Under the pieces are notes generated by a model that worked only from the letters and a program-made list of their open reading frames with translations, searched no databases and was not told the DNA's origin. DNA of 48,494 nucleotides, filler included, from Streblomastix strix (taxonomy: Eukaryota), in assembly GCA_008636045.1 (NCBI GenBank). It is 2 parts of 2 records of this genome, joined end to end, with 100 filler letters (N's around TTAATTAATTAA, not from the genome) between each part and the next. Parts side by side here need not be neighbours in the genome. Positions count along the whole stretch, not along the records: positions 1 to 24,222 come from SNRW01000243.1; 1 more part is not named here. One strand, written 5' to 3'. This document shows, in pieces, positions 1 to 32,390 of this stretch; the first letter of the stretch is position 1; every line of letters begins with the position of its first letter. Made by a program: the position numbers and the translations under genes.

Positions 1-4789
<4,789 letters not shown>

Positions 4790-5660
4790 TCTGAATTCAA
4801 CTATAATACAAATAAATATTAAAAGGTAATATAGATTATATATCAGTTTACGGGTATTGGTTGAAAAATGTATTTTATAAGATGTTAAAAAATAGATCAT
4901 TAAAATTCATCTATAAAAATAATTAAAAAATGTATTTTATGTAAAATTATAATTAAAATTGTCGTAAAATAGTATGACTAATACACCATGTAGATAATTA
5001 ATTATGTAGATATCCCTATTACTTGCGATTTTATTGAATTATCATTTGTAATTTTCCTTGTTCAATTTCAGAGGTATGAAGTGGGTTAACATATAAATTT
5101 ATTTTTAAATATGCCAGAAAATATAAATTACTATAAATTTTTCCATGTGATTTTATTATTGCAAATATAGCACGCGCGATAAATATTTAGAAGCATTTCT
5201 ATTCGGAAAATGAATTAATAATATAATAATAGTAATAAATGGATTGTAAAGTAAAATCATTTACTAATTTATGGCAACAATACCTTCTTAAATCTCAGAG
5301 TACCAAGATATTTACAATTGAATTATCAAATCCAATTTGCTAGTATTGATCAAACATTTAGCAATATATTAGCAAGTATGAATTTTGGTAGAATCTAGGT
5401 GCAAGTGTTTCTCTCAAGGCATTCTTCATATATAAACAGTTACCAGATGATTTAGAATAAACCTCTGCAAACAACGAAATAACCTATTAAATATGCAATA
5501 AAATAATCTTCCTAAATAAAAAAAAAATCATTTTAGATTAATTTATTATTAAAGAAGTGATTATTTAACAAAAGTTACTATGAGAATATGATGCAAATTA
5601 ATGGAATTGAATATAAAACTATTCCCTTAGTAATGAAACTCTTTTATTTATTGCTTTTTT

Positions 5661-6561
5661 TCAAATTTTTAAGAATGAAAAGCAAGATTATTCAGCATTG
5701 ATTGTCGTTTTTTCCACCTTCTTGTTTATCTGATTTTTCCATGTACTAACTAACTGATTGAGGGACTTATTCATGTAAAGTGTCATTAATTTATAGAATT
5801 TATTTTACCAAGCTGAATAACAATACATGTAATTCAATAATAATCATTAAAAGTAATACATACGTTAGAAAAACTTTATCAACATCTTAATCTGTCTTAG
5901 CAGATATTTCTAAGAATGGAATTCCAAGGGAATCAGCAAGTTGCTGAGTTAATGAAAGGTATATTTTAAAAAGAACAATAAAAATAAATTATAACTATTG
6001 ATTCACACTTTTCCTTAATTATAATCAACCAATCTCTTATTTACGAGGTCACTCTTATTGCCAACTAGCAGTCGACAAACACCAGTTATAGCATTTATGT
6101 CAATCTCACGGAACCACATTTGAACATTGTTGAATGAATCACGGTTTGTGACATCATACACGATGATAATTCCATTTGTGCCACGATAGTACGAGTTAAT
6201 AACACTACGAAAGCGATCTTAGCCTCCGACATCCCACTGCACAAGAAATAAAAAAAGTAATGTGTAATCTAAGCTTAGAAAAACGAACCATTTGAAGTTT
6301 TATGATTTTACTGCCTAACCTTATTATACGAATTTTCTGTAATAACAAGATATAATAATACAATAATATCATATTAATCTTCATACGAAGTCAACTACAA
6401 CTGTTTATATATATGTGTCAGAGTATGTATTGTCCTTTAAAAAAAAAACAATAGAAATAAGATTAACGTAATTCAACACACACCGCAAATTTCAAAAGGA
6501 TGCAGGACTTTCCAACCATAGAATCGCCAACTAAGAGGAGTTTAAATGTTTGATCCTTCAT
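5661..6561 (-). CDS. Rab-family small GTPase (Rab1-like, divergent), 6 exons
   Basis: MKDQTFKLLLVGDSMVGKS, YIQTVVVDF, WDVGGQDRFRSVINSYYRG, VGNKSD and EISAK, separated by GT-AG introns. The last-exon frame is ambiguous: the stop is at 5661 (...SCFSFLKI) or 5692 (...DNQC). Confidence 0.9.
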
Positions 6562-7664
6562 TTATTGATATTGTATAAATATAATATAAAAATGAAGTAG
6601 ATATGTAAATCATACAAATTCTTGACTCATTGTATTGCCTCGCCAAACTTATAGAAGACTATTTCAAAGATTATTAAAAGAAATAAAACAAAATATCAAC
6701 AAAATAAAGAGTAGATATTTAATTTGGATGTGTGAATGAGTGAGTTGAAACTATATTGGTGATTGAACAAACTTTTTTAAGCAAAAAATTATATATGTGT
6801 GTGTATTGAAATATGAAAAGTTAAAAGTTAAAAGTAAAAGATAATTGAATAAGTTTAAAAAGCAAATAAGATTATGAATTGAAATTTGATGGAATATGGA
6901 TTATTTGTTGTATATTTTGAAGTTTAATTAAGTAATGATAGTGCTACTTTAATAAAAAGAACTTAATATTAATAAAAATGAATTAAAAATATTTGTTTAA
7001 TATATTATAAAGAGAGTATGCAATAAAATATTGTTTAATATCAATGGCAGAATGATTTATCGGAAATATTTCAAATGAGCTAAATGAAGTTTATATATAC
7101 ATATGTAACAGCTTAAATTTATATCAGTAAGAATATAATGTTTGTCTAGTATATATTTAAATTGTTTTATAATTTATTTCTTGCATGAAATTAGGTTTTA
7201 ATGATAATTTTTTATTAGATGCAAATTGAGCTGAAATTGAGTTAAAAAGTGAATTATTTTAATTTAATTGCAATTATATATTAAGTAAATTCAAATAATT
7301 ATGTTTTTTTTGTAAAAATTTAATTTCGTTACAATTTTAAATTTCTCACATAAATTAAGAAAAATGTATACTTTATATTATCGCAGCATTAAATTAGGCC
7401 TGAGCAAAAGTGGCAAGGTGGCAAGGCAATTTTTAGCTTGCCGGTCAGTAAAAAATTTCGTTTGCCAGTGTAATAAAAATTATCATTTATCTTGCTTAAA
7501 TTGAATGTAATTGATAATAATTAGTTTATTATTAATATTAAAGTTATATTTATAATTGAAACTAAAGTTTTAATAAATTTAAATATAAATAAATGAAATA
7601 ATACAAACGATAAAGTATAATATAATATTGTTTATATTAAAAAAAACATTAAAACTTTTGCATT

Positions 7665-8108
7665 AGTAGTTAAGGATTTGGGAAACCTGTACTAATGAGA
7701 GTTAATATATATGTTCAAATTAAGGCGACCCAACATGGTCACAGGGTATAAAATTCAAAACACTTAAATTATGATGGAAAATTGCTCTTTTAAATAGCTT
7801 TTTTCACCTATTTCGCAATTCGCGTTTCTATTCGAAATATAATAAGTATATTTTTCTACTGTTTTTACATTTTTTCACTAATAATACACTAACTATCAGA
7901 ACGAAATGAGAAAATTAAATAAAACAATTACTTATCTGAATTACTGGACAGTGCTAACCAAGAAATGAACCTGTTTAGTTTATCCCCGCTATTTTCCATC
8001 ATAATTTAAGTGTTTTGAATTTTATACCCTGTGACCATGTTGGGTCGCCTTAATTTGAACATATATCTTAACTCTCATTAGTACAGGTTTCCCAAATCCT
8101 TAACTACT
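7665..8108. repeat. Inverted repeat pair: 118-bp arms (7665-7782 and 7991-8108, 1 mismatch), 208-bp spacer, Polinton-type AGTAGT...ACTACT termini
   Basis: The arms are direct reverse-complement matches. No matching target-site duplication is present (left flank tgcatt, right flank tgggta). Confidence 0.92.
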
Positions 8109-8294
8109 TGGGTATAATAACTCTTTTAATTCTGACTATGAATGGCTAATATAAACATTATCCCAGAATCTCTATCTGTTCATAAATCGACAAATGTAAT
8201 AATAAGAGGTGCAATATTGCTTTTTTATATCCCCACGAGTAATCTAAAGAAATAATCTTTTTTTATCTTACGTATAAAATGGTATTAACTAAAA

Positions 8295-11200
8295 ATGAGC
8301 TGCTAAATTTATTACGAATTATATCACCCCAACTATAAGAAAAAAAAGACTTGTAAATAATTAAAACAGCAGCTAAAGCGTGTACATGATAAAAACGACT
8401 TTCCCGCAAAAGGATCACGAAATAACTATAATGTCCTCAGATAATTTATGATTGAGTTAGACGCTAGATTAGATAACTAATTCTATGTACGATAACCCCC
8501 AACAACTAAAAAGGAGAACTTTAACGAAATACAATAATAATTAGAGTAGCAATTACAATATATATTTTAACCGCAATTACAAGAAATTAAATAACAGATA
8601 GAGTCAACAAAAGAACGTAAACTACTTAATATAATAAACGAAGGAGTACTATTATTAGTTCAACCTCACGATCTAGATTATTTCACTAAAATTCTCCTTG
8701 ATGCCAAATCTAATTTCTAAGATCAAAATCACATCTAACGCAATCCAATAACCGCAGCTCACTATAACAATAATATAACTAGCGTATTAGATATCTATAA
8801 TTTCATTGATCAAATCCACATTAACATGGCTCATAACATCTATAAATTAGCAATTGATTTTGGCTTTATATACGAGCGAACAGATAGAGATAAGAATAAT
8901 GATATAAAATTAACTTACGGTTATATTATCCCCCGTGAATCAATGACCGAAAGAAGAGCTCCATTATTAATAAGATCTCAACAAGATATTGAGCTGCACA
9001 AGGATTATATGTAATCAATTATAATATCTGTTTAGGAAAAGATCCTAATCGATACAAAAGTGAAATATATAGCTATATATTCTATCTGCGCAATAACATA
9101 TCTACTTCCAATCAGTGGAAAGCCTATTCCAAGTTTAAAAATTCACCTTAGCAAAAAACGCTAATGTCTCAGATATATCAATTCACCCTATCCCAACACT
9201 TGCGTACTAGAAGCAATAGCACGTCATTAGCTAAAAGATACTAAGGAGAAAAGATATAGTGATAGTTAGGTTCTTCATTAAATGAAAGAAATTGGCAACT
9301 TATTTTACAATGATTTCAACCCTAAGACATTTGAGGGATTCAATTACGCAACAGATATATAAAAAATCCATTAACATCTAAAACTATCAGTTAATCTCTT
9401 TTCATACGAGTAGGATGATAAGTCTTTTCATTATTTCTTATTCTAATCTTTTCCAATTGAAAGAGATGATGAACTTAATTTGTTACTTATCTAATCAGAG
9501 GAGCTAAATGGTATAAATATTCATACATTACTAGTGACCGATAAATAACGTCTAACTGGCTTATTATTCTGCCCCCGTTGTAAAAATCATTGTTTTAAAT
9601 AAGATTAACATACTAAAGAGAGAATGGAGAAACATATTAAGAAATGTAAGGGGAAAAAAGTGAAATAAGTCCTACTTGATGATTAGCAAAGACCATTTAT
9701 CCCCCACATTATGTAAAATAAGACTTATCGGTATTTACTTACTAATGGTAGATAAAACGAATTTAAACCAACGTAATATTTTATTACTTATGATTTCGAA
9801 ACATACGAACATAAAGTTGATACAAAATTTGGGAAAGAAAGTAAAGTAATAAGCTAACTCATACCACTAAGTGTAGCATCAACCATACATTCATCCAAAG
9901 GTATTAAATCTATATACTATGATATTAGGTAAAAAAATTTCATTAATCAATGGATAAAATAACTATTTGCTGAAGCAGTTTAAATAATGAAAGATAAAAA
10001 TTATACTGATGAAAATATATCTTATTCAATTGAAGTTCCAATCATTGGATATAACTCTGCTAAATTTGATATGATGTTATTGTTTCCATATATGTAATCG
10101 AACTAATGGAAAATAACTAATTATATAGGGTCACCACAAATGTGTAAGTAACTAATTGTAGCTCATAATAATATGAGTATAAAGCTAAAATTTCTAGACG
10201 CTTTCTTATATGTTGCGCCACCAATGACTCTGGGTTAATTCGTAACGAATTTTTCAGATCAATAATAATCAAAGGGGCTATTCCCATACGATCTAATGGG
10301 GGATGATTATGATGAGCAATTAAGTAAATCAGCACCTTTTAAATAAACAGATTTCAATAACACGTTGAAAAATACTAGTATATCTGATTAGAAATACTAA
10401 TTATATCTCTAAGATTATTAATAATTTAATAACAGACGGGATTATCTAAGATATTATAATATACTAGATACTTAGATTATGATTGCTCCAATACAAATGT
10501 TAATTAACCTGTTCTTCGAATACAAGGTTGATATGTTATAACATATGTCAATTGCTAGTTGCGCTAACCCTATAAAATATTCAATAGCATATAGCGATTT
10601 CGAGCTAGATGGAAATTATTGCTATCAAACATTTAATCCACCATTTTATCTTACCCCCTAATTTTGGACCACTAAAGTGTTGAGCTATAAATAATAAGAT
10701 CAAACTGCGAAGAGAGATATTGCTAATATTGTAAGTAATAACGATTATTAATATTTTCCAAAGTTAATGAAAAATTTTTGTTACATTAGTCACGAGCAAT
10801 TTATGTTTAAAAATAGAACTAGATTAGATCGCATTGATAATTCATAGCCACATACTAAGAATAATGTTAGATAGTGCTGCTTATATTGTAACTTAACGAA
10901 AGGAAATAGAAATGAGTAAGAGATAGAATTACTTATTCAATTAAGAAAATTCTGAAGTAAGTATAATTTACCTTCAACAATTAATAATTAGCAAGTGTAT
11001 CAAACACTGAGACAAGGCATCACAGGAGGCCTATCAAATGTAATGAATCGGATAAATATTCGTGGTCAAACTAAAATTAAAAAGTTATTTTATTATGATA
11101 GCAAAATGAAAGTAATCGAAACGGATAATGTAGTCACTAATATAATAGGATTAGATTTTAATTCAATGTATCCAAGTGTTATGAGCAGTTTGTATAATGA

Positions 11201-12506
11201 ACTATGCCCATACACTTAAGGTAAAATGTATATGCCAAGAACAGTAAAAGAAGTAATTAATTTAACAAATGATCTATAAAAATAACGAAGTATAAATATA
11301 ATCGAGTCACCAACTAGATTTACAGCCGCAGGATAAATATTCGTTGCAACAATTAAGGGGCATATTGAAGATATTAATGAATGTATTAATTTCCCTCATA
11401 TTTTGAGAAATTTAACATATGTAGCTGATGAGCTGACAATTGGTAGTTATAACTATAATTTTATGAAAGATAATGGGATGAAAGTAGAGAAGGAAGAAAG
11501 AAAGCTAACACAGCAATTATCTACGCACGATCAATTCATGTCATTCTCCAGTTATTATTTATGGTTTTTAATTGACACATGTCATTTTGTAATTGATGAT
11601 ATAAGTTAGCTCATTCTTTTTACCAAACATGATAAGTTTAATGGATTTGTTAACACTTTTATGAACAGGAGAGTGTAAGCTATTGAATCTAATAATTAAG
11701 GGTTAAGTTAATTCTGTAAAATAGTTATGAATGCCAGCTATGGAAGTGACGGAATGAATACCGAGAAATTTAGTAATATCAAATTAAAGTCAAAGGCTGA
11801 TACATTTATATCTCATTTGACAGATAATTTTATGAGCGAAAGATAGTTGAATGAAAACCTTTATGCTGTGTAATTAAACACAGATAAATGTAAATGTATG
11901 ACTCCACTATAAGAAGCATATTTTACGCTAGATAACGCTAAGTATTGGTATCTTAATTTTATATATAATTTCCTGTATAAATGTTTGGATAGAAATAGGT
12001 TTCATTTTATTGAAGGTGATACGGATTCGATGTACTTTGCAGTAGCAGGGGATATTAATTAATCAATTAACCAAGGGTTTACTCATATCATTACCGATTT
12101 GTAATTTTACGATGATAACTATAAGTATTATTTTCCTACAACTAACAACTTAAAAGAATAGAAGAAATTATTAGGACTATCAATAGAAAAGTAAGGTGAT
12201 ATAATGATAGCTGTCTCGCCTAAGAATTATTATATTAACACTGTAGCTGATGAAATCATTAAATTGAAAGAGGTTAATCAGAAGTAGAATATTATTACTA
12301 AGTAAAATATAATTGATTGTATCGGTGGAAATATAATGAAATGTGAAAATATGCGACTAGGATAAAAAGATGGGGTTATGTCGAAATTAGCACAAACAAA
12401 AAATGCTCTAACAGGCGTACGCACTAAAGGTATTATTTTGCCTAATAGTTAATTATCAGCACCGTTTATTTATTAATTATCTGCGAGTGATTATGTAGAT
12501 GTTTGA
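8295..12506 (+). pseudogene. Protein-primed family B DNA polymerase (~1400 codons) with one in-frame TGA at 10953-10955
   Basis: One frame with TAA/TAG=Q: ExoI YDFET, ExoII GYNSAKFD, KGLFPY, ExoIII YNILD, motif A DFNSMYPS, motif B KIVMNASYG, motif C EGDTDS, PKNY. The start is uncertain (an alternative ATG at 8279 would need a frameshift). Confidence 0.93.
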
Positions 12507-12757
12507 ATTATCCCAAATTGGGAATTATGTAGATCTTTAATCAACTATAAATGATTCCCCTGAATGAAACTATGATTTACGAGCTTGAGTAATTAGGAAT
12601 TAATTGGAAAGAGCTAATTAAAAGGATATTCGACATAGCTATAAAATATGCCTGTGAAAATTAGATATGTAATTGAAAAGGTGTTCATATTCTAAAAATA
12701 AGTAAAAGGGTTATTTTTTCCCCTAGCATTTTTTATATTTTTTTATAAACTACATAA

Positions 12758-13078
12758 ATGTAAAGTAATCATGAGCATTGTCTATATAATAACTATTCAC
12801 TTAATTATAATGTAATAGGAAATTTAAGTTATGATAGAGGAGATCTATTAACTTATTGTGGTAAATAATTTCTAATATTAACCACATATTAATATGAAGA
12901 GTTCAAAAAGACATATAATGATATTATGGAAACAAGTGAAAAATAACGTATTGAGTTCAATGATAAGAGACTAAGGAGAATGATTTAATAGAACAAATAA
13001 TGTTTCGATGAATGTATATTTTAAATAGAAGAATCAAAATTTAAATGGTCACCTCTTCACAAATATTATATAGATTGA
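12758..13078 (+). CDS. Element hypothetical protein (106 aa)
   Basis: ATG-to-TGA open frame under the variant code (MQSNHEHCLY...KYYID); no recognised motif. Confidence 0.55.
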
Positions 13079-13330
13079 CGGTTATTATTTTTGTTATAAT
13101 AAATTGATTCTGTAATTTTTGGTGGCGCAATACTCTTTTTTCAAATTTTTGTTATAATTTTCGACCTCCATAATTAAGACACTCGACTTTTTCAAAAATA
13201 AGGAAATAATTAATGTGTTTCTTATTTTTTGGGTAAATTAAACCATCTTCACGACTTTTTCAAAAACAAGAGGTGTAATTAACCTTTTTTGAATTAATGT
13301 GTAAATTAACGATGGAAAAATAACTACATT

Positions 13331-15289
13331 TCATCCTGCAGCAATCATACTACTACCAATCTCACCAATAACCTCCAAATTTAGCTCTTATGGCTCCGGG
13401 TTATCATCAAACATGATTCTAATGACCGTATCACACAGGAAATGAAACATGGGGGTTAAACCTACTTACCAACTAATTGGATAGCTTCTTGTACCCATAA
13501 ACCCCGCTAGTATGTTTTAATTTTCAGGGTGAATAGTATCATCATTAATTTTGTAATTATCAACTATACCTGTGATTATTTATGTGTTTAATATAGTTTA
13601 TATATCTGTTCTCGCACCAACTCTAGTACTATTATAACCTCTCATAAAAGAATCATCAGTAGCCAATTTCCATGCCAACATATATTTATTAGGATAGTAT
13701 GTTTTGACCGCTTTAGAACCAATAAATAGTGTAGTACGATAGAACACATTATCTATGTTATTTATATCCCCATCATTTTTCCCATACCAATATTTCTTAT
13801 CGTTTATGTTGACGTTTTCGAAGGTGAGTGAATGATACAAATCGCTAGATGGCGATATAATATCTTAATCAACAAAACACTAAAACATTGAGCCATTTGT
13901 AGCTTGAGTATGTGCTTCGTAAGGGAAAGGAACAACGTGTCGCTAATCAACTATTAAGTCTATGTTGTGGAATAACATGGGAAAGAACCATGTGGGATAC
14001 TAGAGCATAGCAAACGTCATGAACATAGCTTTGATATTAGAAAATGACATTATACTTTATATTTATCCGCTGGATGGCTCAAAATTGTTCATGGTGTAAT
14101 TTGATGATTGTGATTTAAGAACTTGGGTAGGGAAATGTATTATTTTCTAAGCCCTAATCATATCGATAATTGCCTATTCATTTTCCATGGTAAAGCAAAG
14201 ATTATGGATCGATAAATATTCTGAGTAAGCGTTATCCAATTATTATATACTATTTTTAGGGTCAGTGGAATCATCAGCCAAATCTCTACAATTAATCATA
14301 CGTACAGAGTATTATCTATATTGAATACCTTCTTCGTTTGTCTTTAGTATAATTATATCAGGCATCTCCGGTGGAATCATTGTGTAGGCAAAGTGTGAAT
14401 CAAATATAGGGATTGTTTTATTTAACCATAATATTTTTAAATCTTATAGGAAATCAGTCATCCACAGTTATAGATATAAACTGGCATAATTTCTAGTGAG
14501 TGCAGGAAATTCGTTAAATATTGGGTTTAGTTAATTGAGATCCATTACTCCACTAAAAGTAATGGGGTCAGGTATTTTATAAAAGTAATCATTAGTACTG
14601 GAATTAAGTTTACTACATGGTATATCAATAAATACTCCACAATGACGTTTCCCCTATGTTATACTTTCAAGTGGTGAGACACTAACGGAATTATTAACTG
14701 TGAGGTCAGATAAAGAATTAGAGCAGATGATAGCTTATTCGCGAGCGTAAATGGAAGTTTCCCATAATTTTGTATTTTATTTACATATAACAACTTATTA
14801 GAAAGGTCCACAAGCTGTTGCGTATCCCAACCAAAATTTGAGTGTTTCAGTATTATCATATCTTTATACATCTTATTTTATAGTTCTTTCTGCAGGCAAT
14901 GGTGCAGCTGCTGTCTTTATCCCATTAAAATTAGTTAATTACCAAGCAAATTCAATATCAGTATTTCCTCCTTTAGTTGTGTTGATAGAATTTAGCTGGA
15001 CACCCAAAGTGTTAGCGGGTATAGTAATTGTCCAGTTAACCTAACATGTTTAAACACAGCAACAGGTGGCTGAGCCTCTAGCGCCAAGTGGAGCTCGAGT
15101 CTATCTCGTACCACTAGAAAACAATATATTAATAGGTTAGTCTTCGAATTGTTATTTTGATAGATGGAATGATAATGGTTCGATAGTAAGTGTCCGCATA
15201 ACTTCATTAAGAGCAGATTATGAAGAGACATAATCCGAATGTGACGCTTTCGATAGCCTAGCAAGATAATCTTGTGCTCCAAAACTCAT
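13331..15289 (-). CDS. Probable major capsid protein (double jelly-roll), 652 aa, intact
   Basis: Uninterrupted ORF MSFGAQDYLARL...FLCDTVIRIMFDD...MIAAG with beta-rich composition. LKFWLGYATACGPFQQ resembles the FxGxKxxxxxxxQ segment of Polinton-like capsids. Size and context with pPolB and ATPase fit. Confidence 0.72.
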
Positions 15290-15322
15290 TTTAATAAACG
15301 AAATAACTTTTTAAATTAATAA

Positions 15323-15526
15323 ATGGGATTCTGGTCATCATTAAAGAACTTCGGTTCAAAAGTATTACATAGAGTTACATCTGCCGTTAAATGGGTTGCG
15401 CCTGTATTACATAAAGTTATGGGTGCTGTAAGCGGTCCAATTGATGCAATAAATCCAACAGCAGGTATGATTGCGAGAGGAGTTGGTGGTGCTGCAGGTA
15501 TGGCGAATAAGTTTTTAAATCGATGA
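15323..15526 (+). CDS. Small Gly/Ala-rich amphipathic protein resembling the adenovirus protein VI membrane-lytic helix
   Basis: MGFWSSLKNFGSKVLHRVTSAVKWVAP...; divergent from the MCP gene with a 33-bp gap; MGxxxS N-myristoylation consensus. Confidence 0.75.
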   Translation: MGFWSSLKNFGSKVLHRVTSAVKWVAPVLHKVMGAVSGPIDAINPTAGMIARGVGGAAGMANKFLNR

Positions 15527-15664
15527 CATTGAATTAATGATATTGAATTAATGATACTGGGTGTCAGCTCATTTTTAAAAGAGTTTAGGTGACAATTAAC
15601 CTTTTTTTAGAATTAGCGAAAAATAAGTAATCACATCAATTTGAGACATTATTTTTGCTCATAA

Positions 15665-15856
15665 ATGATCAGCACCAAGAATTTTGGCTCTAAAATATTA
15701 AGTGGTGTAAAATAAGCTACGGGTTATGTGCCAAATTTACTTAATAAAATTCTATCCTCAACATAAATGAGAAGTGATGCTGTTATTATAAAGCCGACAC
15801 ATATATAACCAAAACCAATAGATTACATACATCATTCTAAAAATATGATATAGTGA
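15665..15856 (+). CDS. Small paralogue of the upstream amphipathic protein (63 aa)
   Basis: MISTKNFGSKILSGVKQATGYVPNLLNKIL shares KNFGSK(V/I)L and helix register with ORF 15323. Confidence 0.55.
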
Positions 15857-15899
15857 TGATCATTAATAATTAGTTAGATATTATTTTTATTTATTGTAA

Positions 15900-16343
15900 A
15901 TGGAATCACTAATAATATAATTGAAGTAATTAATTAAACAATTATCCAAAAATAATATACAGGAAGATATGATATAATAAATAATATAGTAATTGAAAGA
16001 GTTATTATAACCTGTAACTCCTCAATTAATTAATCCGTTAATGTAAGAGTTAAAGAGAATAAAATAATAATTCGATATCTAATAAACTAAATTGTAATTT
16101 TTTAATAAGTAAGCAGAGTAAGAGCAATACTTTAATAAAATTTATACTGAAAATAATCATACACATACTGATTAATATAACCAGTATAAATAGCTAAATA
16201 TTGCTTAAGCTCAGTAAATCAACAAACTGAAATAGTATATATTAACTGAGTCATAAGATGAAGAAAAATAGATTTATAATACATTTGTTGCTGAGGATGA
16301 TAACAAACTATTCTGTAATTATTATATATTGACATTAATTTGA
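15900..16343 (+). CDS. Element hypothetical coiled-coil protein (147 aa)
   Basis: Open frame MESLIIQLKQLIKQL...; Q/L/I-rich heptad-like pattern. Confidence 0.6.
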
Positions 16344-16522
16344 AGTGGTTATTTTTACCAAATAATTTTGTCTGTTAGCCTTTTTTCACTATTATGACGT
16401 ATCAATTTTTTCGTAGATATACCCGCTACGATCGTAGCAGGCTAATTTTAACATGAAAATTCAAGGGTCAAAAATAACGATGTTAATCTACCCCGAACAA
16501 ATTTGGGCGGGCCATTTTTTCA

Positions 16523-17056
16523 TCAATATGCGTCATAATAGTTATATAATTATTAAGGAACACATTATTCACTTTTTTCCTCTTCCTCTTCTTCTTACTC
16601 TTACTCTATTTATTTAGGTTGCTATTTAGGCTTAGGTTATTTTAACGCTTTCAATTTATTTTTATATTTCTCATTTTATTTAACCATTTCAGCGTGTTAT
16701 TATTTTATGTATTTATTTTCAGTTCGCAAAGATATTAGCTCTTCAAAATCAAGTTGCGGATTAACGTATTTGATTTATGGTTTGTTTTATACTTTTCTTT
16801 TAACTTATATAGCAGGCTTCGGTTATTCTTCTTCAATAGCTATGGAATTATCACTTTCGGAGTCAGATTCAAACATTTTAGCTGGCTATTTCTTGTGTTA
16901 ATTTTATCCCCTAGCCTCCATCATTAGCTTATTTTACTAAGCTTGTGTCACTATTTTAAGTCCTCGTTTTCCATTTTCGAAACACTTGATTTGTTTATTA
17001 TCTCGAATAAAATATCCCCCATCAAAGTACTCAGTATTAGTATCATTTTCCATCAT
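16523..17056 (-). CDS. Element hypothetical charged/coiled-coil protein (177 aa)
   Basis: Open frame MMENDTNTEYFDGGYFIRD...YNYYDAY. The upstream in-frame taaATA may be a mutated start. Confidence 0.6.
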
Positions 17057-17115
17057 AAATTTTAACGCTTATGACTTATCTATTTAATAATATAAAAATT
17101 TCTGTTTTAATTAAA

Positions 17116-17922
17116 ATGATACGTGGAGTATAACGTAATTAATTGAGACTATCTAAAAGTAAGAAATAAATGAAAGAACTAACAGATGTAGCTAGCCAAT
17201 AGAGATTATAGTATGTGGATAATTTAATTGCGAAAGCTCTAGCTAATGAAACCATTCAATCAAGAAGTGTCTAATCGAATGAATCAGCTGAGCCAATTAT
17301 ATCACCAAGAAAATAACAACGATCATTTAACGAGATTTAGTAATCAGAATAAATAACATCATTTCACTAACAAAGATCATTCAATAAAAATAAGTACACT
17401 GATGCTGATAGAACAACTGCTTAAGTTACACCCCAAGAAGTATTGGATAAATTATCATAGCCATCAATCGAAATATAACCTTAACCAATTATCATACCAC
17501 AAACTATTCCAACTAATGTCACAGATAATCATTTGAACGCTTATTTATCCCATCCAAATTTAGAAGTAATGAAGTTCGTTGTTGATTGTATTTGGAGAAC
17601 AGTTACCCATAGGAATAGGGGTGATGACTTTATATTATCCTCTGATAATTTCATTAAATTTTGGTCTATAGTTACCTAAGAAAAAGAAGATGATATAAAA
17701 ATAGTGTTAGAGGAAAGTATAATTGCAACACACTCTTGCTTAAGTAAATAATATAAGAAGAAGGAAATAGTAAGAGATATAGATGTTCTGATAAAAGATG
17801 TTTCGATTAATACGTAGGATAATGTACTCTGGAATAGTGTAGAGAAATTATATAGAATTAATAAAGATCTTGTTAGACTATCTGATGTACCAGCAATTGA
17901 TATTGACCCTAACGAGTTTTGA
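17116..17922 (+). CDS. Element hypothetical protein (268 aa)
   Basis: Open frame MIRGVQRNQLRLSK...IDPNEF; low-complexity N-half and globular-looking C-half. Confidence 0.65.
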
Positions 17923-18157
17923 TGAGTTAATAATATCCGAATTAAAAAAAAGATAAATAGTCACCAAAAAAATAAGTAACACATTAATTTATTATTTCCT
18001 CATGTTTTAAAATTACAGAATTGATTTTATCGTTATTTTTGGTGGTGGTGAAATCTACCGATACCTAATAAATAAATTAACGGGCTTATTTTAGACCCTG
18101 ACATATTAATTGATCTATATCTGTTAATCTGATTATTATTTTTTGCCATCAATATAA

Positions 18158-19186
18158 ATGGACGATTTAGAATTACCAACCGAAGAATAAATGTAAACAA
18201 TGAAAGAGGAGATAAATAAAATGGTATAAGAAGAAATTAAGTAAAAAGAATTTGATTAATTACAAGATAAATTATCCCCACATATCGAGCATATTGTCCT
18301 TAAGTTTTTAACATATTTTAGTTAATATTTTCGAGCTAAAGAATATAAATTTGATCCCAGTGGGCTAGTAACAATAAATACTTAATAAGAAATTGTGGGT
18401 ACAAAAATATTCGATAAATTTTCGATAAAAGATGGCACTGCAAATTAACTACTATTAGCTAACGGAGATACTGCTGATGTAGACGATTTTTTACCTAAAT
18501 GATATCCTCACGCTATGGGTCAAATGATTATCGAGCCAAATGATGATATACGTAATTAAGGGCTTAGGTTAATGAAAAATAAAGCGAACTGGGATAGCTT
18601 TGTATTATCAGGGTGTAACATTGATCCGTAAGATAGAGATGGAGTATGTAAAATGGGATCAACTTTATTATAATTTAGGATATAAAAATAAGAAGATGAA
18701 GCCTATGATTATAAGTGGCTAGTTATCGATTTCGTTTGTACTTCATTAAAATTCAATAATTAGCTAATAGCTCCATTACCAATTCCCCCTATAGAAAATG
18801 CTATCAAATAGACAATAGCTTACGGTATGTATGAGACATTAGTTTGGGGCTCATTTACAACATATAATGGAAGGGCTTATATATCATTATAAATAACACA
18901 TAATAACACTAACACACAGACTTAATCTACATATACTTTATTCTCTGTTTTTAAAGATGAAGCTAAACCTTAATTTACAGGGACACCTTTTAATATACCT
19001 TTGAATGCCGTAATGTTTGCGTAAAAAGTAATAGGCTATCCGATATGTTGGAATGGTGCTATTCCAATAGACTATTGTATTGATGTGGATGGACATGTTA
19101 GAATTAATACTATGTGTTAGTTAGTTTTATCTGAAAATTTTTGTGTTTAGGTATGTGATTCTTATGCCCTACATAGTTAATCATGA
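18158..19186 (+). pseudogene. Fibre/spike-like protein with in-frame TGA at 18500-18502
   Basis: LVTINTQQEIVGTKIF...DGTANQLLLANG resembles phage tail-fibre shaft motifs and is followed by a beta-rich C-terminal domain. The same frame continues on both sides of the TGA. Confidence 0.6.
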
Positions 19187-19211
19187 GTAAATTGAACCAT
19201 ATAAAATAACT

Positions 19212-19352
19212 TCATGAGTAAATTGAGTTTCTTACTTCATCACTGATCTTTTCGCTATCAATTGAAATCTATTATAGTGTTAACACACAACTTAATAAAT
19301 GACTGCTAGCTATAATCATTAAAGATATACTGCTAATTATTTCCCAGATCAT
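19212..19352 (-). CDS. Small hydrophobic ORF (46 aa), possible membrane peptide
   Basis: MIWEIISSISLMIIASSHLLSCVLTL...; its leader and first codons are a 33-bp exact match to those of ORF 15665. Confidence 0.4.
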
Positions 19353-19580
19353 TTATGAGCAAAAATAATGTCTCAAATTTAATGTAATAAGTTGATGGAT
19401 AGAAAAAGGATACATTAATTTACACGCTATTCAAAAATATAAAAAGGCAGATTGTCACCAAAAAAATAAGAAACATATTAGTAATATATATTTTTCCTCA
19501 TGTTTTATTTTTGTGTGGTGTCCTTTTTGGGTCTGACCCCTAAATCAGCTGATTCCATTAATTTAACTCAATCAATTCTA

Positions 19581-20588
19581 TCATTTTAATATATCGAAAT
19601 TATTAAGTGATTTATTTATTATGATAAATTCATATTTCTATAGACTGCTATATATAATTATAAATTCCTGTTCGTTTAATCCGGTGATATTGTTTTCTTC
19701 GTATATTTATTTCAAATCTTACTCTGCTATATTAGCGCCAACAGCTATCACATGGCATAATACTCTCGCTGACTTAAACAGATACTGAGGTCGTTAAGCG
19801 CAGAAGAATATAGTATTTTTACTATGTCTACTGTCACTATCTAAGTGAGTAATCGACTTAGCTAATTCACTAGTATATCTTTATATATCAGTATTTGACC
19901 CGATATCATCGAATATTATTAACGTAGAAAGTAATGATGAGCTAGCTAATATAAGAATTTTTTTGAACTCTTGTTCACCCAGCTTCTCTATTATTTTTAG
20001 CTTCTTGGAATATTATACACCTTTAATAATAGATGGAATATCAAATCGCATTAGTGCACTAGGCTAACTATATTCGTTTAATATTTTGATACATTCGGAT
20101 TAGAAAATATCAGATAGCCTATGTCGGTATTATTTATCTGTTTCGTCTCTTTATTATTTATTACCTACAAATATTGATTCCTTCATCCGAGTAATATAAT
20201 CTGAGTCATATTTAATATCTCTCTCTTTTAATTTCCAATAATTATATACTTCTTTAACCTTATATTTAATCTCATCAAATAAAGGAAGAAATGATTACGC
20301 CTCTGTGTAAGTTATATTAATTAATTTTATATCTTTATTGTTTAAATTAATAGCCATTGTTTCGTCCAGTCCGAAGTTTGAGAAGTATAATATATATGGG
20401 TGAATGTATCGCTAATATAACACAATTAATTTAACCATTAATGTAGTTTTACCACTTCCAACTGATCCAACGATATAATAATTGGCGTTTATAAGAAAGA
20501 TAGAATGAGGAGCTAATGGTCTTATCATATACTCCTCTAATAGCGATTGATCATCGAATGATACTTAATTAATTTATTATAGAGTCAT
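19581..20588 (-). CDS. A32/FtsK-HerA-type genome packaging ATPase (335 aa), intact
   Basis: Walker A GSVGSGKTT, Walker B LIIFDD and the SRHSKNTIFFCAQ (Arg-finger/Gln) motif, all in one frame. Confidence 0.88.
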
Positions 20589-20604
20589 TTAATTCTCGTT
20601 AAAT

Positions 20605-21009
20605 ATGAATGTTATTAGTGTAATATAGATAATTTTAAATTACTTATTTTACGGGATTAATTTTATTGTATCAATTATCTCAGTTAGCGTACCTATCGAA
20701 TATATTAATCTTATCAAATAATTATGGGGTTATCGAGATATAATATTGGTTCCTATTAATATATTTGTTTATATAATTTAATTTTGCTATCGTAGAAAGA
20801 AGATGAAGAGTGCTATTGATAATAATAATGATAATAATAATGATAAAAATAATAGTAGATCAGTTATTAATAATAATAAATCAGCTATATAATAATATAC
20901 TGTTGATTAATTAGAAGAGCTAATCAAATAGACAATTCAGGATAATGATATTGGACTAGCGAAATAATATCGATACTAGCTATATCTTCTGTTGTTGAAT
21001 TAAAATTGA
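20605..21009 (+). pseudogene. Putative membrane protein, apparently frameshifted near 20750-20760
   Basis: Hydrophobic N-terminus (VISVIQIILNYLFYGINFIVSIISVSV). A different frame continues YICYIIQFCYRRKKMK...LLLLNQN to TGA. Confidence 0.4.
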
Positions 21010-21080
21010 GAGTGTATAAATTATGAAAAAGTTTTTTCGCACCCCCTCTTTTTTTTTCTATTTTTTTATCTGGCTAATAA

Positions 21081-21647
21081 ATGTAATAATTTGTATCTCT
21101 ATAAGATATTTCAACTCATGAAATATCAATATAACAACCATGGACTATTAGACGAATAGCTGATGGTGCCATTAATAAAATTTATACTGAAAAAAGTGGA
21201 TATTAGTAAGTCAGTATAAATGGAAAGACTATGGGTCTTCATAGGCTAGTAGCTATTTAATTTATACCTACAGATGATTATACTAAATAGGTTGATCATA
21301 TCAATCATAATAGATCTGATAACTCACTTATCAATCTGAGATGGTTGTCACGAAGAGATAACTGTCTGAATAGAACAAAACCCAAACGATAACATATAAC
21401 ATATACATATCTAGATATATTACCTTCTGATTTTATTGAACAAAGTTAATACGGAAAACACTAATTTGAAGGATTATATTTCTCTCCTAGTGAAGATATG
21501 TTCTATATGTCAAATGGTATAAAATATAAAGAGCTACATGTTAATGAGAAGCTAAATGGTGCTTTGTTTGTTTATGCCCCAGATGTGAGGGGAAAAGGTC
21601 ATTAGATTCATTACATAGGGGCTAAGAAAATTATGAATATAAAATGA
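21081..21647 (+). CDS. HNH endonuclease (phage I-HmuI/HNH_3-like), 188 aa, intact
   Basis: SGYQQVSI...LHRLVAIQFI...VDHINHNRSDNSLINLRW..RRDN. Confidence 0.9.
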
Positions 21648-21811
21648 TCTTCGCTAATCTGTGATCATTATTTTTAGATATGAAAATTTGATACATTATT
21701 TTTGCTTGCGAATTAACCCATAGGTTTGATCTCTTCGCTAATCCGTGACATTATTTTTATTGACCATAGGTTTGATCACCTGAAAGTATGCCACATTATT
21801 TTTGCATATAA

Positions 21812-23240
21812 ATGACCGCTCAAAGTATGTAAATATTATCTTCGTCCTAGGAATAAGAATTTGTCTAATGGAAAACAACTATTCCATAAGGCTATAATTA
21901 GTTCTAAGTTAATAGTATATATAATGTCCCACTAAACCTATGTTATTATTTGAACAAGAATTACATAAAAATTAAAACAGACATAAAGTCAACAGATACT
22001 AAGAAAATAATGATATAAGAAGAAATATAAAGTGGTTTTAAATTTACCCCCATTAACTAACTCCCACCAATAAGAATTAAATTGAACACACATGTCAACA
22101 ATAATTATGTAGATAACGAAACACATTAATCCTATAAATTTATGCCCCTAAAATACGTACTTAAAAATAGTGATATAAATAGTTTCACTGATAGCCAAGA
22201 ATAATACTTTCATTAATTCGATACAACTAACGGTGGACCAATTAGCTTTAATTAATCAGACAATGAACATACACAAAAGTTAGGTTGTTATTACACACTG
22301 TCATAAAATAAAGGTGTTGATATATGTTCCGCTGCTATAAATTATATAAATTTGAGATTAGATTGTACTCTTTATCATTACTGGATATAAGATACTTAGT
22401 TGGCAATTGCTTATCGAATGATGGGGCTAATTAAAATATATTGTCCTACAACAGATAATTATATAACTTCTGTTTAACCATTAACGTCGAGTATAAAAAT
22501 TAGCTAAAACACTGGTACATAAATTGCTTTAATAAATAATGAGCTAGTTACTACGGAATAATAGCCTATTAATGTACAGAGTTAAACCATGTAATTAACA
22601 ATCAATTAAATCAACACATATCCTGTGAGGATACTATTTTCTTTGCCTGCCCTGTCATTAGCAGAATGGTAATATATTTATACATCATGTTAGAGAATAT
22701 CAGACCTTGGCTAATTTATCCCATAAATCCTAGAAGAATTTTACGAAAAATAATATGGTGTTTCAAGTAAGGTATTATAAATAGAGCTGTCAAATAACCT
22801 GTATATCTAACTCACAAACGCTAGCGATCTATATGTAGGATCATTATTAGACAATCATATTAAATAAATGACCTTAGAAACATTGTATTATAAAATTAAA
22901 TATAACAGTGATGATTAATATTAAAATTTACCAATATTTTCACCCTTCATCGGTAATTTCATGGAGTTTCCACAAATGTTAATTGTAGTAGTAAGCAATT
23001 AATTAATAAAGGGGTATTTCACTATAAGTATAAGATAACGCTGCTTTTAGCAACGTAGTATTTAAATAGAATTTGATTGGTGCGCCAGTGATATGGGGGT
23101 AGAATATGTTATCTAATTCAAATATTATAGGTATGAATAAAGAAGTAATATTTAAACTATACGATAATATAGGTAGATAAGTTCCAGTATAATATATGGA
23201 TAGATATAATAATTTGTTGCTGGAAATATAGTATTAGTGA
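21812..23240 (+). pseudogene. Probable minor capsid (penton) protein, frameshift near 23025
   Basis: Long beta-rich ORF. The C-terminal IFKLYDNIGRQVP...LLLEI, typical of penton-like single jelly-roll ends, lies in a different frame from the upstream portion. Confidence 0.6.
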
Positions 23241-24222
23241 ACATTGATAAATTTACGGAGCTAACATATTTTTCAAATTTGGAAAAAATATCAGTGAATT
23301 AATTATAATTAATGGGTCCCCCAAAAATAACACATTATTTTTTTATTTAACTCATTTATTATTTAACTATTCCATTAATTTAGGCGTTGCCTACTAACTA
23401 TCTTCTTTCGCTATCTCAATTATCTCTTTCAATTAATCCATTCGCAATCTCCTGTTAAATTATCTCAATAAGAATCTCAGTTCTATTTCCGGTTCGGATT
23501 TCGTAGCTTATGATACTAAAAGTTATAAAAATTAGCTGTAGATCATATATTCTTATACGCTTATTGTAATCATTTTAAGAATAATAAATATGTCGAGTAA
23601 AAGTAAAACTAAAAGTAAAAGTAAAAAATCTTGGTCATCATCTGATAGTTCGAGCACTAATACCGAGTAAAGATAATAAATAAGTTTTGTTAATAAATTA
23701 CCATAATTAGCAGGAGGAAAATATAATTATACTACCAAAGGAATGAGATAAGGGAGAAAATTGCGAAATATATATATGAAACATAAAGAGAACATAACAA
23801 TACCTCCTTAATTGAGAGGTGATGACGCTTATAATTAATTGAGAAATTAATTTATGGCATTAGATCCTAAATTAACCATAACTAATGAATGTCTTAGAGT
23901 ATTCAAAAAATCAGTTAATCAGTCGGATTATAAATAAGCTAATAAATTATTATATGGTCCTGATTGGTAAAAAATAACTAACGATTAACATTTAATGAAA
24001 AAAATAGTTGCACATGATGATATATAATAGCTATTGGAGGATTAATAGGAGCAAATGGCACTAATGAAAATAGAAGTAGAGTAGAATTTTAATAGATTAG
24101 TGAACATTGATAAATTTACGGAGCTAACATATTTTTCAAATTTGGAAAAAATATCAGTGAATTAATTATAATTAATGGGTCCCCCAAAAATAACACATTA
24201 TTTTTTTATTTAACTCATTTAT
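23233..24222 (+). repeat. 127-bp exact direct repeat (23233-23359 and 24096-24222)
   Basis: Identical sequence attagtgaacattg...ctcatttat; the second copy abuts the contig end. Confidence 0.9.
23590..24222 (+). CDS. Basic Ser/Lys-rich element protein (possible core protein), truncated
   Basis: MSSKSKTKSKSKKSWSSS...LAGGKYNY...; the frame runs into the duplicated segment and the gap with no TGA. Confidence 0.55.
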
Positions 24223-24322
24223 NNNNNNNNNNNNNNNNNNNNNNNNNNNNNNNNNNNNNNNNNNNNTTAATTAATTAANNNNNNNNNNNNNNNNNNNNNN
24301 NNNNNNNNNNNNNNNNNNNNNN
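24223..24322. other. Artificial contig-joining spacer (N44 TTAATTAATTAA N44)
   Basis: Symmetric N runs around an all-frame TAA stop linker, exactly 100 nt. Confidence 0.92.
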
Positions 24323-25121: not shown

Positions 25122-26232
25122 ATGATTTTTGTATTGATAATTGTTCAAAGTGCCCTAGGACTTTCAGAGATAGCTAGAATTGTTAATGAGAAGAAAACAA
25201 CATGGACAGCCAGAGATTATAGTAAAGATATAATTGATGATTCAATCATACAGAAACAACAACTAGATTCGTTTCAATAATTTTTTGATATGAAAGCGGT
25301 ACCTGCTCCATTAAACAACAACTTGCCCGAGTCATTTGATGCCCGTGAAAAGTGGCAAAATTTATATGGAATCAAAAAATAGGGTAAATGCTCATCATGT
25401 TGGGCTCACGCTGCTGCAGAGGTTGCAGAAAACAGATTGGCAATTAATGGATGTCCAAAAGGTAGACTATCTCCTTAAGATCTGATAAGCTGCGATTTAA
25501 ATGATAATGGATGTACTTTTGGGTATACTTTGATATATATTTTGACAATTCTTCTTTTTATTAATATATGAATATTGTATACTTTGTTAGTTTGCCATAT
25601 GTCGTATGGCCGCATGTATTGTAATATGGTATAGCAACTGAAGAGTGCATACCATATGTTTCAAATGAAAGTAGAATTCCACTTTGTCCAACAAAATGTG
25701 CTAATGGAAGTGATATTGTCAGATACAAACCTGAGAGAATCAGTTATTTATTAGCTAAGGATATGCAACAAGAAATTTTAGACAATGGTCATGTAGATAC
25801 TGCTATTATTACTTATGAAGATTTTTCGCATTATGAAAAGGGAATCTATTAACATACTTATGGGTTTAAAATTTATTTCTAATACTTTATTGCTTATACT
25901 TAATAATTGTTTTATAGTGGACCTGTGTATGCTCATGCAATCGTAGCTATTGGCTGGGGAGTTGAAGTACATAATAAAGAATAATATTTAAATTATTGAT
26001 AATATTAATCTCTATATTCTTTATACTAAATTATTAATAGAATGGAATCCCGTATTGGTTGATCCAGAACAGCTATGGAGAAGAATGGGGAGAAAAAGTT
26101 TGTTCCATTTTTTATAGTTCATATTATTTTTAAATTTGTATGCAGGGCTACTTTAAAATCCTACGTGGGAGCAATGAATGCGGAGTTGAAACATTACCTT
26201 TTGTTGGGTATTTTAACTGTAATAAATTATGA
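25122..26232 (+). CDS. Cathepsin B-like papain-family cysteine protease, multi-exon
   Basis: Signal peptide, LPESFDAREKW, QGKCSSCWA, LSPQDLISCD, HAIVAIGWG, YWLIQNSYGEEWGE, GYFKILRGSNECGVE. Confidence 0.93.
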
Positions 26233-31700: not shown

Positions 31701-32390
31701 TATTTCTCATTTTGATAGAAAGATATTTATTTATATACATGAAAATAAAAAACAAGCACTTACAATATTTATATGTTGATTCATCACCAGTATAATTAAA
31801 ATTAATTATTCCTAAAAGAAAACAAAATATTTTTTTTAAATACATTTTTCAATCACAAAGAGTTTACAAATTAGGTTAGTAAAATTTCAGTATTAAATAT
31901 TGATTAATTTTATTATGTAATAAGTATTATTTTCATCTAACTCATAAACGATGAACCTATTATTTAACTACATATAAATTACAATTTAAACACGAACAAT
32001 AAATTTATATTATATATTAATGATTTTTTTCATAATGTCGATATATATTATAATTAATATTTGAAAATTTTCACATATAAAAACTATACATTTGCTTAAA
32101 ACAAAGAATTTATTTTTGATTTTAGCTTTTTGATTTTCACAGCATAAAAGTTTTATTATTTAACAACAATGAACTCCAAATAATAACATTTATTTTTTTC
32201 GGGTATTATCTAATATTTGAAAGAATATACCCTAGGGATGGGCATAACGAATGCTGTTTATAAATTCATTTAAAAAAACCAATTTTTTCTCATTTTCAAA
32301 ATTTATTTTATCTTTTTAAATGATTATCTTTCATTTTAATAACATTTAGTTAACTTATTTTTGATTTATATTGAAATTTATACTATTAGA

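Follow-up and report, generated by a model that had tools for sequence, protein, structure and literature searches.

Does a ~16.5 kb block in the genome of Streblomastix strix, whose genes open only when TAA and TAG are read as Gln, represent an endogenous virus, and does this code restrict its lineage to such hosts? The block lies at 7665-24222 of the window, the whole 48,494-nt stretch of DNA that was analysed (positions 1 to 24,222 are SNRW01000243.1). We consider it very probable that the block is a damaged copy, truncated on its right, from a many-copy Polinton-like family, likely integrated in S. strix, a protist of the termite gut, and written in the host's TAA/TAG=Gln code.

Gene block and genetic code

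Translation with table 6 detected stop-to-stop frames of 937, 667, 656, 516 and 451 aa in 7665-24222, and at least four frames of at least 450 aa were obtained in 0/200 order-2 Markov simulations; the block proposed in the preliminary description is real. Together, 16 assigned ORFs account for 85% of its length. Under table 1 no ORF of at least 100 aa is found inside the block, confirming that the standard-code ORF track misses its genes. Across the entire window only two table 1 ATG ORFs reach that length, and neither lies in the block; the longest open stretch inside the six large genes is 31-91 codons.

The flanking host genes are likewise hidden under table 1, so the code is that of the host and not a viral feature. 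TAA/TAG account for 319/394 Gln codons of the element (~81%) and for 127/152 in the flanking host kinase (84%). The Gln codon use of the element matches the host kinase level, in agreement with the earlier view of a virus adapted to the code of its anaerobic protist host. At 8592, 33,218/33,920 of the depth in X1 shows a TAA>CAA difference, and 19/32 coding differences checked were synonymous. Close sisters have Gln at 65% in TAA/TAG columns and 68% in CAA/CAG columns, a partly circular comparison. Against the standard-code relative L002, Gln was found at only 5/44 TAA/TAG columns (background 3.7%), tied with Glu and Lys and exceeded by Asn (6), which we count against the best explanation. The window contains no tRNA and no Rfam family; without a tRNA, the element would depend on host translation.

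Replication and packaging genes

Read with table 6, the block encodes pPolB carrying an inserted endonuclease VII, an ATPase of A32 type, an HNH gene, a 652-aa capsid candidate, penton-like and fibre-like genes and ~9 ORFs without assigned function. The first four of these uphold the gene list proposed earlier; the penton-like and fibre-like genes are candidates.

The pPolB gene (8142..12506, plus strand) matched DNA_pol_B_2 (PF03175, E 2.4e-7, above cut-off), and all six exonuclease/polymerase motifs were located. Its endonuclease VII-like insert matched phrog_1035 (endonuclease VII, E 1.9e-10) and phrog_1907 (E 1.3e-9). An in-frame TGA at 10953-10955 splits the gene, separating the insert from the polymerase domain.

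The 335-aa A32/FtsK-type packaging ATPase (19581..20588, minus strand) is uninterrupted and carries Walker A/B motifs. The window copy did not match the Pox_A32 profile; the 4/4 sister ATPases tested, at 55-60% identity, did so above cut-off. Its homologues are all S. strix proteins (27/27), the L001 and L002 counterparts are 28% identical, and the ATPase profile had no match in PDB sequences. The free-standing HNH endonuclease (188 aa, 21081..21647, plus strand) matched PF13392 (HNH_3, E 1.8e-10) and phrog_59 (E 1.8e-21).

No family above cut-off was found for the plus-strand ORFs of 49 aa (12527-12676), 106 aa (12758-13078) and 68 aa (20803..21009), and no Pfam or PHROG family for those of 147 aa (15900-16343, plus), 177 aa (16523-17056, minus) and 283 aa (17071-17922, plus). 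Two further table 6 frames are an ORF of ~70 aa (23352-23570, minus) and one of at least 169 aa from 23590 (plus), which continues into a 127-nt repeat at the contig end. No integrase (including RVE) or recombinase was detected among the ORFs of the block, which lacks the right end of the element, and no RVE integrase among 14 ORFs of the incomplete L002 sequence. Nor was any protease, Ulp1/adenain included, detected among the ORFs of the right-truncated block, several of which have no assignment, or Ulp1/adenain among the 14 ORFs of L002.

Capsid module

The uninterrupted 652-aa major capsid protein candidate (13331..15289, minus strand), a predicted double jelly roll, has 188 homologues; all 120 listed are S. 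strix proteins, 23 of these 120 measure 620-699 aa, and several sister capsids sit on 23-33 kb contigs. The model of the window protein itself (pLDDT 44.5) is suggestive: the first 18 Foldseek rows shown were all double-jelly-roll capsids, none at E <=0.001, VIA gave Z <=5.5 with a phage baseplate ranked top, and PDB sequences and PDB profiles yielded no match. The relative L002 is more informative. Its homologue, detected by tblastn at E 1e-57, matched capsid clusters at TM 0.48-0.61 (TM >=0.50 in 6/7 structure rows), including Sputnik-MCP and Capsid_N clusters, and scored 0.96-0.98 by features; all its aligned parts fell below the Atlas bar for family naming. The jelly-roll fold expected earlier is thus supported indirectly, through L002, and the 652-aa protein is probably a double-jelly-roll major capsid protein.

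Adjoining the capsid gene is a Gln-free, cationic amphipathic peptide of 67 aa (15323..15526, plus strand; charge +7, hydrophobic moment 0.43), which L001 and L002 also have next to their capsid genes, at 37-39% identity (E 5e-9 to 9e-9). The peptide had no Pfam match, and the best Pfam signal of the L001/L002 homologues was Cecropin (E 0.03). We predict a candidate membrane-lytic entry protein. It presumably resembles the lytic helix of adenovirus protein VI, with no Pfam match linking the two. The start of a nearby 63-aa ORF (15665..15856, plus strand) resembles the peptide by eye, and this ORF is possibly a degenerate copy.

The fibre-like gene (18158..19186, plus strand) is broken by an in-frame TGA at 18500-18502, and the sister gene model P0134 joins both halves in one frame. 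It showed a weak repeat-motif match to a fibre-like ORF of L002 (E 0.047). The minor capsid (penton) candidate (21788..23240, plus strand, ~480 codons) has three homologues, all from S. strix, and matched a 701-aa L002 ORF at E 3e-6. A frameshift lies between 22999 and 23046, where the sister P0121 maps in two frames. Its fold search gave no match, with an unusable model (pLDDT 31); for the L002 homologue, PF21507 V18-19 was present in 10% of the rank-12 cluster, a lead only. A second 652-aa frame (21788-23746) was rejected as a full-length gene, being the penton candidate read past the frameshift.

A defective copy of a many-copy family

Three genes are broken, pPolB and the fibre-like gene by in-frame stops and the penton candidate by a frameshift, and the right end is lost at the contig break; this copy is therefore defective. 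Its defectiveness is an addition to the preliminary description. The many sister copies place the element in a many-copy family, and the homologues support S. strix, or a near-identical oxymonad, as the host.

The high copy number, the broken fibre and penton candidates and the lack of virion evidence would also fit a self-synthesizing transposon that has stopped forming particles from its capsid-like genes. We regard this as quite improbable: capsid, ATPase and peptide are uninterrupted here, the module is conserved in standard-code relatives, 5/9 differences checked in the capsid gene were synonymous, and a transposon needs an integrase, of which none was seen.

Ends and integration

The block opens with a 444-bp unit (7665..8108), likely the left terminus plus an inverted duplicate, whose 121-nt inverted arms (7665-7785 and 7988-8108) are 98% identical. 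The unit starts with AGTAGT and stops with ACTACT, a Maverick-type end motif; (AGT)2 ends were described in vertebrate Mavericks (PMC8097293). No 6-bp target duplication flanks the unit. Allowing up to 3 mismatches, no further copy of the AGTAGT arm was found in the window, from which the right end of the element is absent. On the right, the block stops where the contig ends, and an N44-12nt-N44 spacer follows. The 127-nt repeat located there (24096..24222) is an exact copy of 23233-23359 and likely an assembly-graph overlap; it was rejected as a terminal repeat, being direct, internal and placed at the contig end.

A host Rab gene lies 1.1 kb left of the block, with N-free sequence between them and a step in GC content from 0.244 to 0.285. 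X2, from a separate study, covers 30/30 bins. No bridging piece was found at the left junction among those listed. In support of the earlier term endogenous, the assembly runs unbroken from the Rab gene on the left into the block, and on this observation the block is likely integrated in the host genome; no bridging read was seen, and the right flank is unjoined.

Several of these features would also be accounted for if a linear virus existing outside the chromosomes, or a mosaic of sister copies, had been joined to host DNA through an amplification or assembly chimera. An inverted duplicate with a short spacer may be typical of amplification chimeras, as the 127-nt overlap may be of graph overlaps; contig depths in X1 sum to 797-26,216 across the block versus 5-22 across 4300-6959; and both an integrase and a junction-bridging piece are missing. 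We consider such an origin unlikely, since the three inactivating breaks and the many short sister capsids fit decaying genomic copies, and several sister capsids reside on contigs of 23-33 kb. Other contigs of sample S1 repeat the same 7.8-8.2 kb arrangement (X3 joints, loose ends), which suggests that the inverted unit is possibly common to the family.

Standard-code relatives and host restriction

The metagenome relatives L001-L003 are ~28% identical and use the standard code, which among distant environmental capsids is known for these three only. These relatives keep the capsid, the adjacent amphipathic peptide and the ATPase, and L002 also has a penton candidate. Scans of viral contigs, and the initial metagenome scan, contained no relative. 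Since the same structural module occurs in these relatives under the standard code, the proposed restriction of the lineage to hosts reading TAR as Gln was not supported at the lineage level: judged from these genomes, the wider lineage is not code-restricted and only this branch is code-locked. The tree was built by a quick method, with long branches meeting and no outgroup, so no direction of change can be read from it.

For the integrated Polinton-like family we propose the following working. Intact sisters would have a linear genome of ~17-20 kb, copied by pPolB from the AGTAGT ends. Packaging by the A32 ATPase would fill a double-jelly-roll capsid bearing penton and fibre, and the amphipathic peptide would breach the host membrane on entry. 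Once the element is resident, CAA/CAG codons would drift to TAA/TAG up to the host level, and this drift would lock the branch to hosts with the TAA/TAG=Gln code. The present copy would be unable to replicate alone, and an integrase may be encoded in the lost right end or be supplied by other elements. The observed part of this explanation comprises gene content, code use, the three breaks, the many sisters and the standard-code relatives.

Relation to published viruses and significance

Endogenous viruses of S. strix in table 6 were already reported and read as a long-term association (PMC10120064), so the headline is known and no surprise to specialists. In that paper, the 820 S. strix MCP hits fall in one cluster, MMPC_40 ('Metamonada group'), common to S. 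strix and Trichomonas vaginalis Maverick-Polintons and built at 25% identity over 30% length. We found no description of the present capsid family in the literature searched, which left out most subscription papers.

The present capsid may represent a second subfamily, only distantly related to the first. We tentatively suggest, at close to an even chance, a second uncatalogued S. strix capsid lineage that is the recoded branch of an unclassified Polinton-like group with standard-code members. In that reading, the group has a capsid of 600-700 aa with a lytic amphipathic peptide next to it and a divergent A32 ATPase, possibly without its own integrase or protease. It is also quite possible, though we doubt it, that the capsid family is part of MMPC_40 and nothing is new. 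The single published cluster argues for this, as do the Atlas top matches of the L002 capsid homologue, which are Parabasalia and Preaxostyla clusters, and the motif pattern that the S. strix and Trichomonas MCPs in Table S3 (PMC10120064) share, by eye, with this capsid. The printed S. strix MCP has 562 aa against 652 aa here, however, and looks only distantly alike; in the consulted part of the PMC10120064 supplement, 0/6 locus tags and 0/6 tag prefixes of the capsid matches were found. DUF4106, a model whose presence in the profile library is unconfirmed, gave no match in 51 + 10 family members, and the nearest full-length capsid kin beyond S. strix are environmental proteins at 21-29% identity.

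Should the capsid family fall outside the published cluster, the 10.8% of the S. strix genome given as viral in Table S4 (PMC10120064) would be an underestimate. The standard-code relatives are genomes that could place the Metamonada elements left ungrouped in bioRxiv 10.64898/2026.06.19.733378, and with genomes in both codes virus recoding can be put to the test. A second lineage, if true, would offer matched standard-code and recoded genomes for studying how a DNA virus crosses a code barrier and becomes host-locked. The conserved peptide beside the capsid gene may be a concrete entry-mechanism candidate.

Comparison with known systems

The element shares with the S. strix 'Metamonada group' viruses (PMC10120064) the likely host, table 6 use, the reading as a long-term association and, by eye, the capsid motif pattern; it differs in capsid length from the one printed example and in having environmental proteins as closest outside kin of the capsid. 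In the adintoviruses (PMC8502044), too, the virion module includes a small peptide active on membranes, there resembling cupiennin, with no Pfam match linking it to the peptide here; they are animal-tropic and carry rve and adenain, whereas all named homologues of the present element are from an oxymonad and its code is TAA/TAG = Gln. As in the Polinton-like viruses described in bioRxiv 10.64898/2026.06.19.733378, we find a core of a predicted MCP, a minor capsid candidate and an A32 ATPase, a protist host and many, probably integrated, copies, but pPolB is kept by the family here. Maverick-Polintons (Polintoviricetes) differ in that no RVE integrase or Ulp1/adenain was found in the 16.5 kb here, where the right end is missing, and no capsid sequence similarity was detected; they are alike in pPolB with an inserted endonuclease, the packaging ATPase, predicted major and minor capsid proteins and, at the left end, the (AGT)2 end motif. 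Taken together, the Polinton-like core first proposed for this locus holds for pPolB, for the A32 ATPase through its sisters and for the double-jelly-roll capsid through L002, with the minor capsid protein as a candidate.

Results

Translated with table 6 (TAA/TAG as Gln), the block at 7665-24222 had long frames throughout, the five longest being 937, 667, 656, 516 and 451 aa; four or more frames of 450 aa arose in 0/200 Markov simulations, so these frames are longer than chance. Under table 1, only two ATG ORFs of at least 100 aa were detected in all 48.5 kb, both beyond the block, and the proposal that the standard code hides the element was borne out. The 16 ORFs assigned here account for 85% of the block (GC 0.285 vs 0.244 and 0.248 in the flanks), and TGA is the terminator of every complete ORF listed there, entries trimmed before their stop aside.

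The flanking host genes (kinase, Rab-type GTPase with introns and papain-family protease) also require table 6, and the code therefore belongs to the host. TAA/TAG account for 319 of the 394 Gln codons of the element, a tally that takes in about 75 out-of-frame penton codons, and for 127 of the 152 in the flanking kinase gene.

The host Ser/Thr kinase (1-4137, minus strand) is a single long frame of at least 1,379 aa with low-complexity inserts. The Rab-type gene (5940-6561, minus strand; Ras PF00071, E 1.5e-22, one exon) lies 1.1 kb left of the element, and the intron-containing protease gene (Peptidase_C1, E 3.3e-17) is at 25122-26200 (plus strand). Two very long low-complexity host frames with GRGRG repeats (27903-35216, plus strand; 1,265 and 1,147 aa) matched no Pfam family.

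The predicted replication and packaging genes were recovered. pPolB (8142-12506) matched PF03175 above cut-off and carries an endonuclease VII-like insert and one in-frame TGA at 10953. The ATPase (19581-20588, minus strand) has Walker A and B motifs, with Pox_A32 passed by 4/4 of its sisters tested, and the HNH assignment (21081-21647, plus strand) was clear. The penton candidate (21788-23240, plus strand) is frameshifted between 22999 and 23046, as the S. strix sister gene model P0121 maps in two frames. The fibre-like gene (18158-19186, plus strand) contains an in-frame TGA at 18500, while a sister gene model has both halves in a single frame; its repeat presumably resembles phage tail-fibre repeats. 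A 67-aa peptide without Gln adjoins the capsid gene (charge +7; hydrophobic moment of residues 2-19, 0.43 vs 0.37 at the 95th percentile for the capsid protein), and we take it to resemble adenovirus protein VI. Family searches of the block ORFs, the right end of the element being missing, detected no integrase, recombinase or protease.

Intergenic motifs recur inside the element (15638-15670/19347-19379, 17947-18009/19441-19507 and 13189-13234/17963-18012), one pair being a 33-nt exact inverted copy; they are candidate promoter or terminator signals.

The capsid candidate (652 aa, 13331-15289, minus strand) gave a poor model from 51 sequences (pLDDT 44.5). Foldseek returned no match to it at E 0.001 or better; the top 18 PDB rows listed were all double-jelly-roll capsids (best E 0.025), the BFVD matches were headed by adenovirus hexon (E 1.1e-3) and pithovirus MCP, and VIA gave Z ≤5.5. 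The homologue in metagenome locus L002 matches the window capsid at tblastn E 1e-57, and has feature scores of 0.96-0.98 against clusters including Sputnik MCP and Capsid_N; in 7/7 structure rows it reached TM 0.48-0.61 across 381-490 residues, all these scores lying below the family-naming bar of the service. The predicted double-jelly-roll fold is thus backed indirectly, better through this homologue than by the capsid's own model. Fold searches of the penton candidate model and its L002 homologue did not establish a penton fold.

A profile search with the capsid family detected 211 proteins (150 listed). Nine long distant relatives aligned at 21-29% identity, and two of them led to three metagenome loci. 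L001 and L002 encode the capsid, adjoining peptide and ATPase, L002 also a penton homologue; all seven of their genes checked terminate in TAA and lack internal TAA/TAG. L003 has a partial capsid gene, open under table 1. No pPolB was found in these three partial loci. Comparison with standard-code L002, an independent test of the code assignment, gave a weak result, Q standing at 5/44 TAA/TAG columns vs a 3.7% background. A quick tree without a root (27 rows) grouped the window capsid with 14 from S. strix in one clade (support 100), separate from every environmental row. The standard code is ancestral, and for this reason, not from a tree root, recoding is placed on the S. strix branch. The preliminary description restricted the lineage to hosts reading TAR as Gln: the element does share its host's code, but with L001 and L002 in the standard code the wider lineage is not so restricted.

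Within L002, tandem repeats of 106-121 nt occupy 64-363 at the left contig end, and 5380-7293 holds three neighbouring ORFs, each about 200-220 aa long, whose ends are alike and which matched no family.

The capsid had 188 homologues; all 120 among the matches listed were from S. strix (the closest at 90%), only 23 of them 620-699 aa long. The ATPase (27/27) and penton candidate (3/3) matches were likewise S. strix. Contig depth in data set X1, summed at 90% likeness, was 5-22 over 4300-6959 vs 797-26,216 across the block. The sums cannot be read as copy numbers, and the window itself may come from X1. Data set X2, from a different study, covers 30/30 bins. Of 40 differences listed (1,163 further), 32 fell inside ORFs checked, 19 of those synonymous under table 6, including TAA>CAA at 8592. 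An X1 contig (depth 19) links 13290 back to 8130, and in sister model P0037 parts of the capsid, HNH and pPolB genes are joined together: copies are rearranged or gene order varies.

The left end begins AGTAGT, and an inverted 121-nt copy closes with ACTACT at 8108; no target duplication flanks this inverted-repeat unit. An AGTAGT-type end motif is reported for vertebrate Mavericks (PMC8097293). From the Rab gene start (6561) into the block the sequence is free of N, and no piece bridging the left junction was among the matches listed. The right end is the contig end, where 127 nt repeat an internal segment and are followed by a 100-nt spacer (24223-24322; N44, 12-nt palindrome, N44) that looks like an artificial contig linker; adjacency of DNA past 24322 is therefore not shown, and the sequences flanking the spacer may have no relation to each other.

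A short GC-richer stretch (7397-7500) immediately to the left of the element is found repeatedly, with moderate depth (54.8 at 7491), and is possibly the terminus of another DNA transposon.

Discussion

The block is very probably a genuine, if defective, member of a Polinton-like family present in many copies, and uses its host's code. Such an element would work like a Polinton; with neither integrase nor protease seen, membership of Polintoviricetes is unproven.

The main claim, an endogenous virus in the reassigned code of S. strix, is already published. PMC10120064 states that the EVEs of S. strix are written in the code table of their host, infers a long association and gives 820 MCP hits in a single cluster common to T. 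vaginalis; the locus tags of our capsid matches were not found in its supplement as far as into Table S5. Oxymonads are among the TAR = Gln lineages (PMC5304391), Metamonada have many pPolB2 copies (PMC10748475), and a 2026 preprint leaves Metamonada elements ungrouped (bioRxiv 10.64898/2026.06.19.733378). In PMC11161782, polintons are defined by pPolB, RVE, vUlp1, ATPase and capsids, and endonucleases inserted in pPolB are noted; PMC8502044 describes cupiennin-like membrane-active genes in adintoviruses.

The part worth following is a possible second capsid family, together with the standard-code relatives. The S. strix MCP printed in PMC10120064 (562 aa), compared over its first 400 aa, shares by eye a motif pattern with the window capsid, yet looks distant from it.
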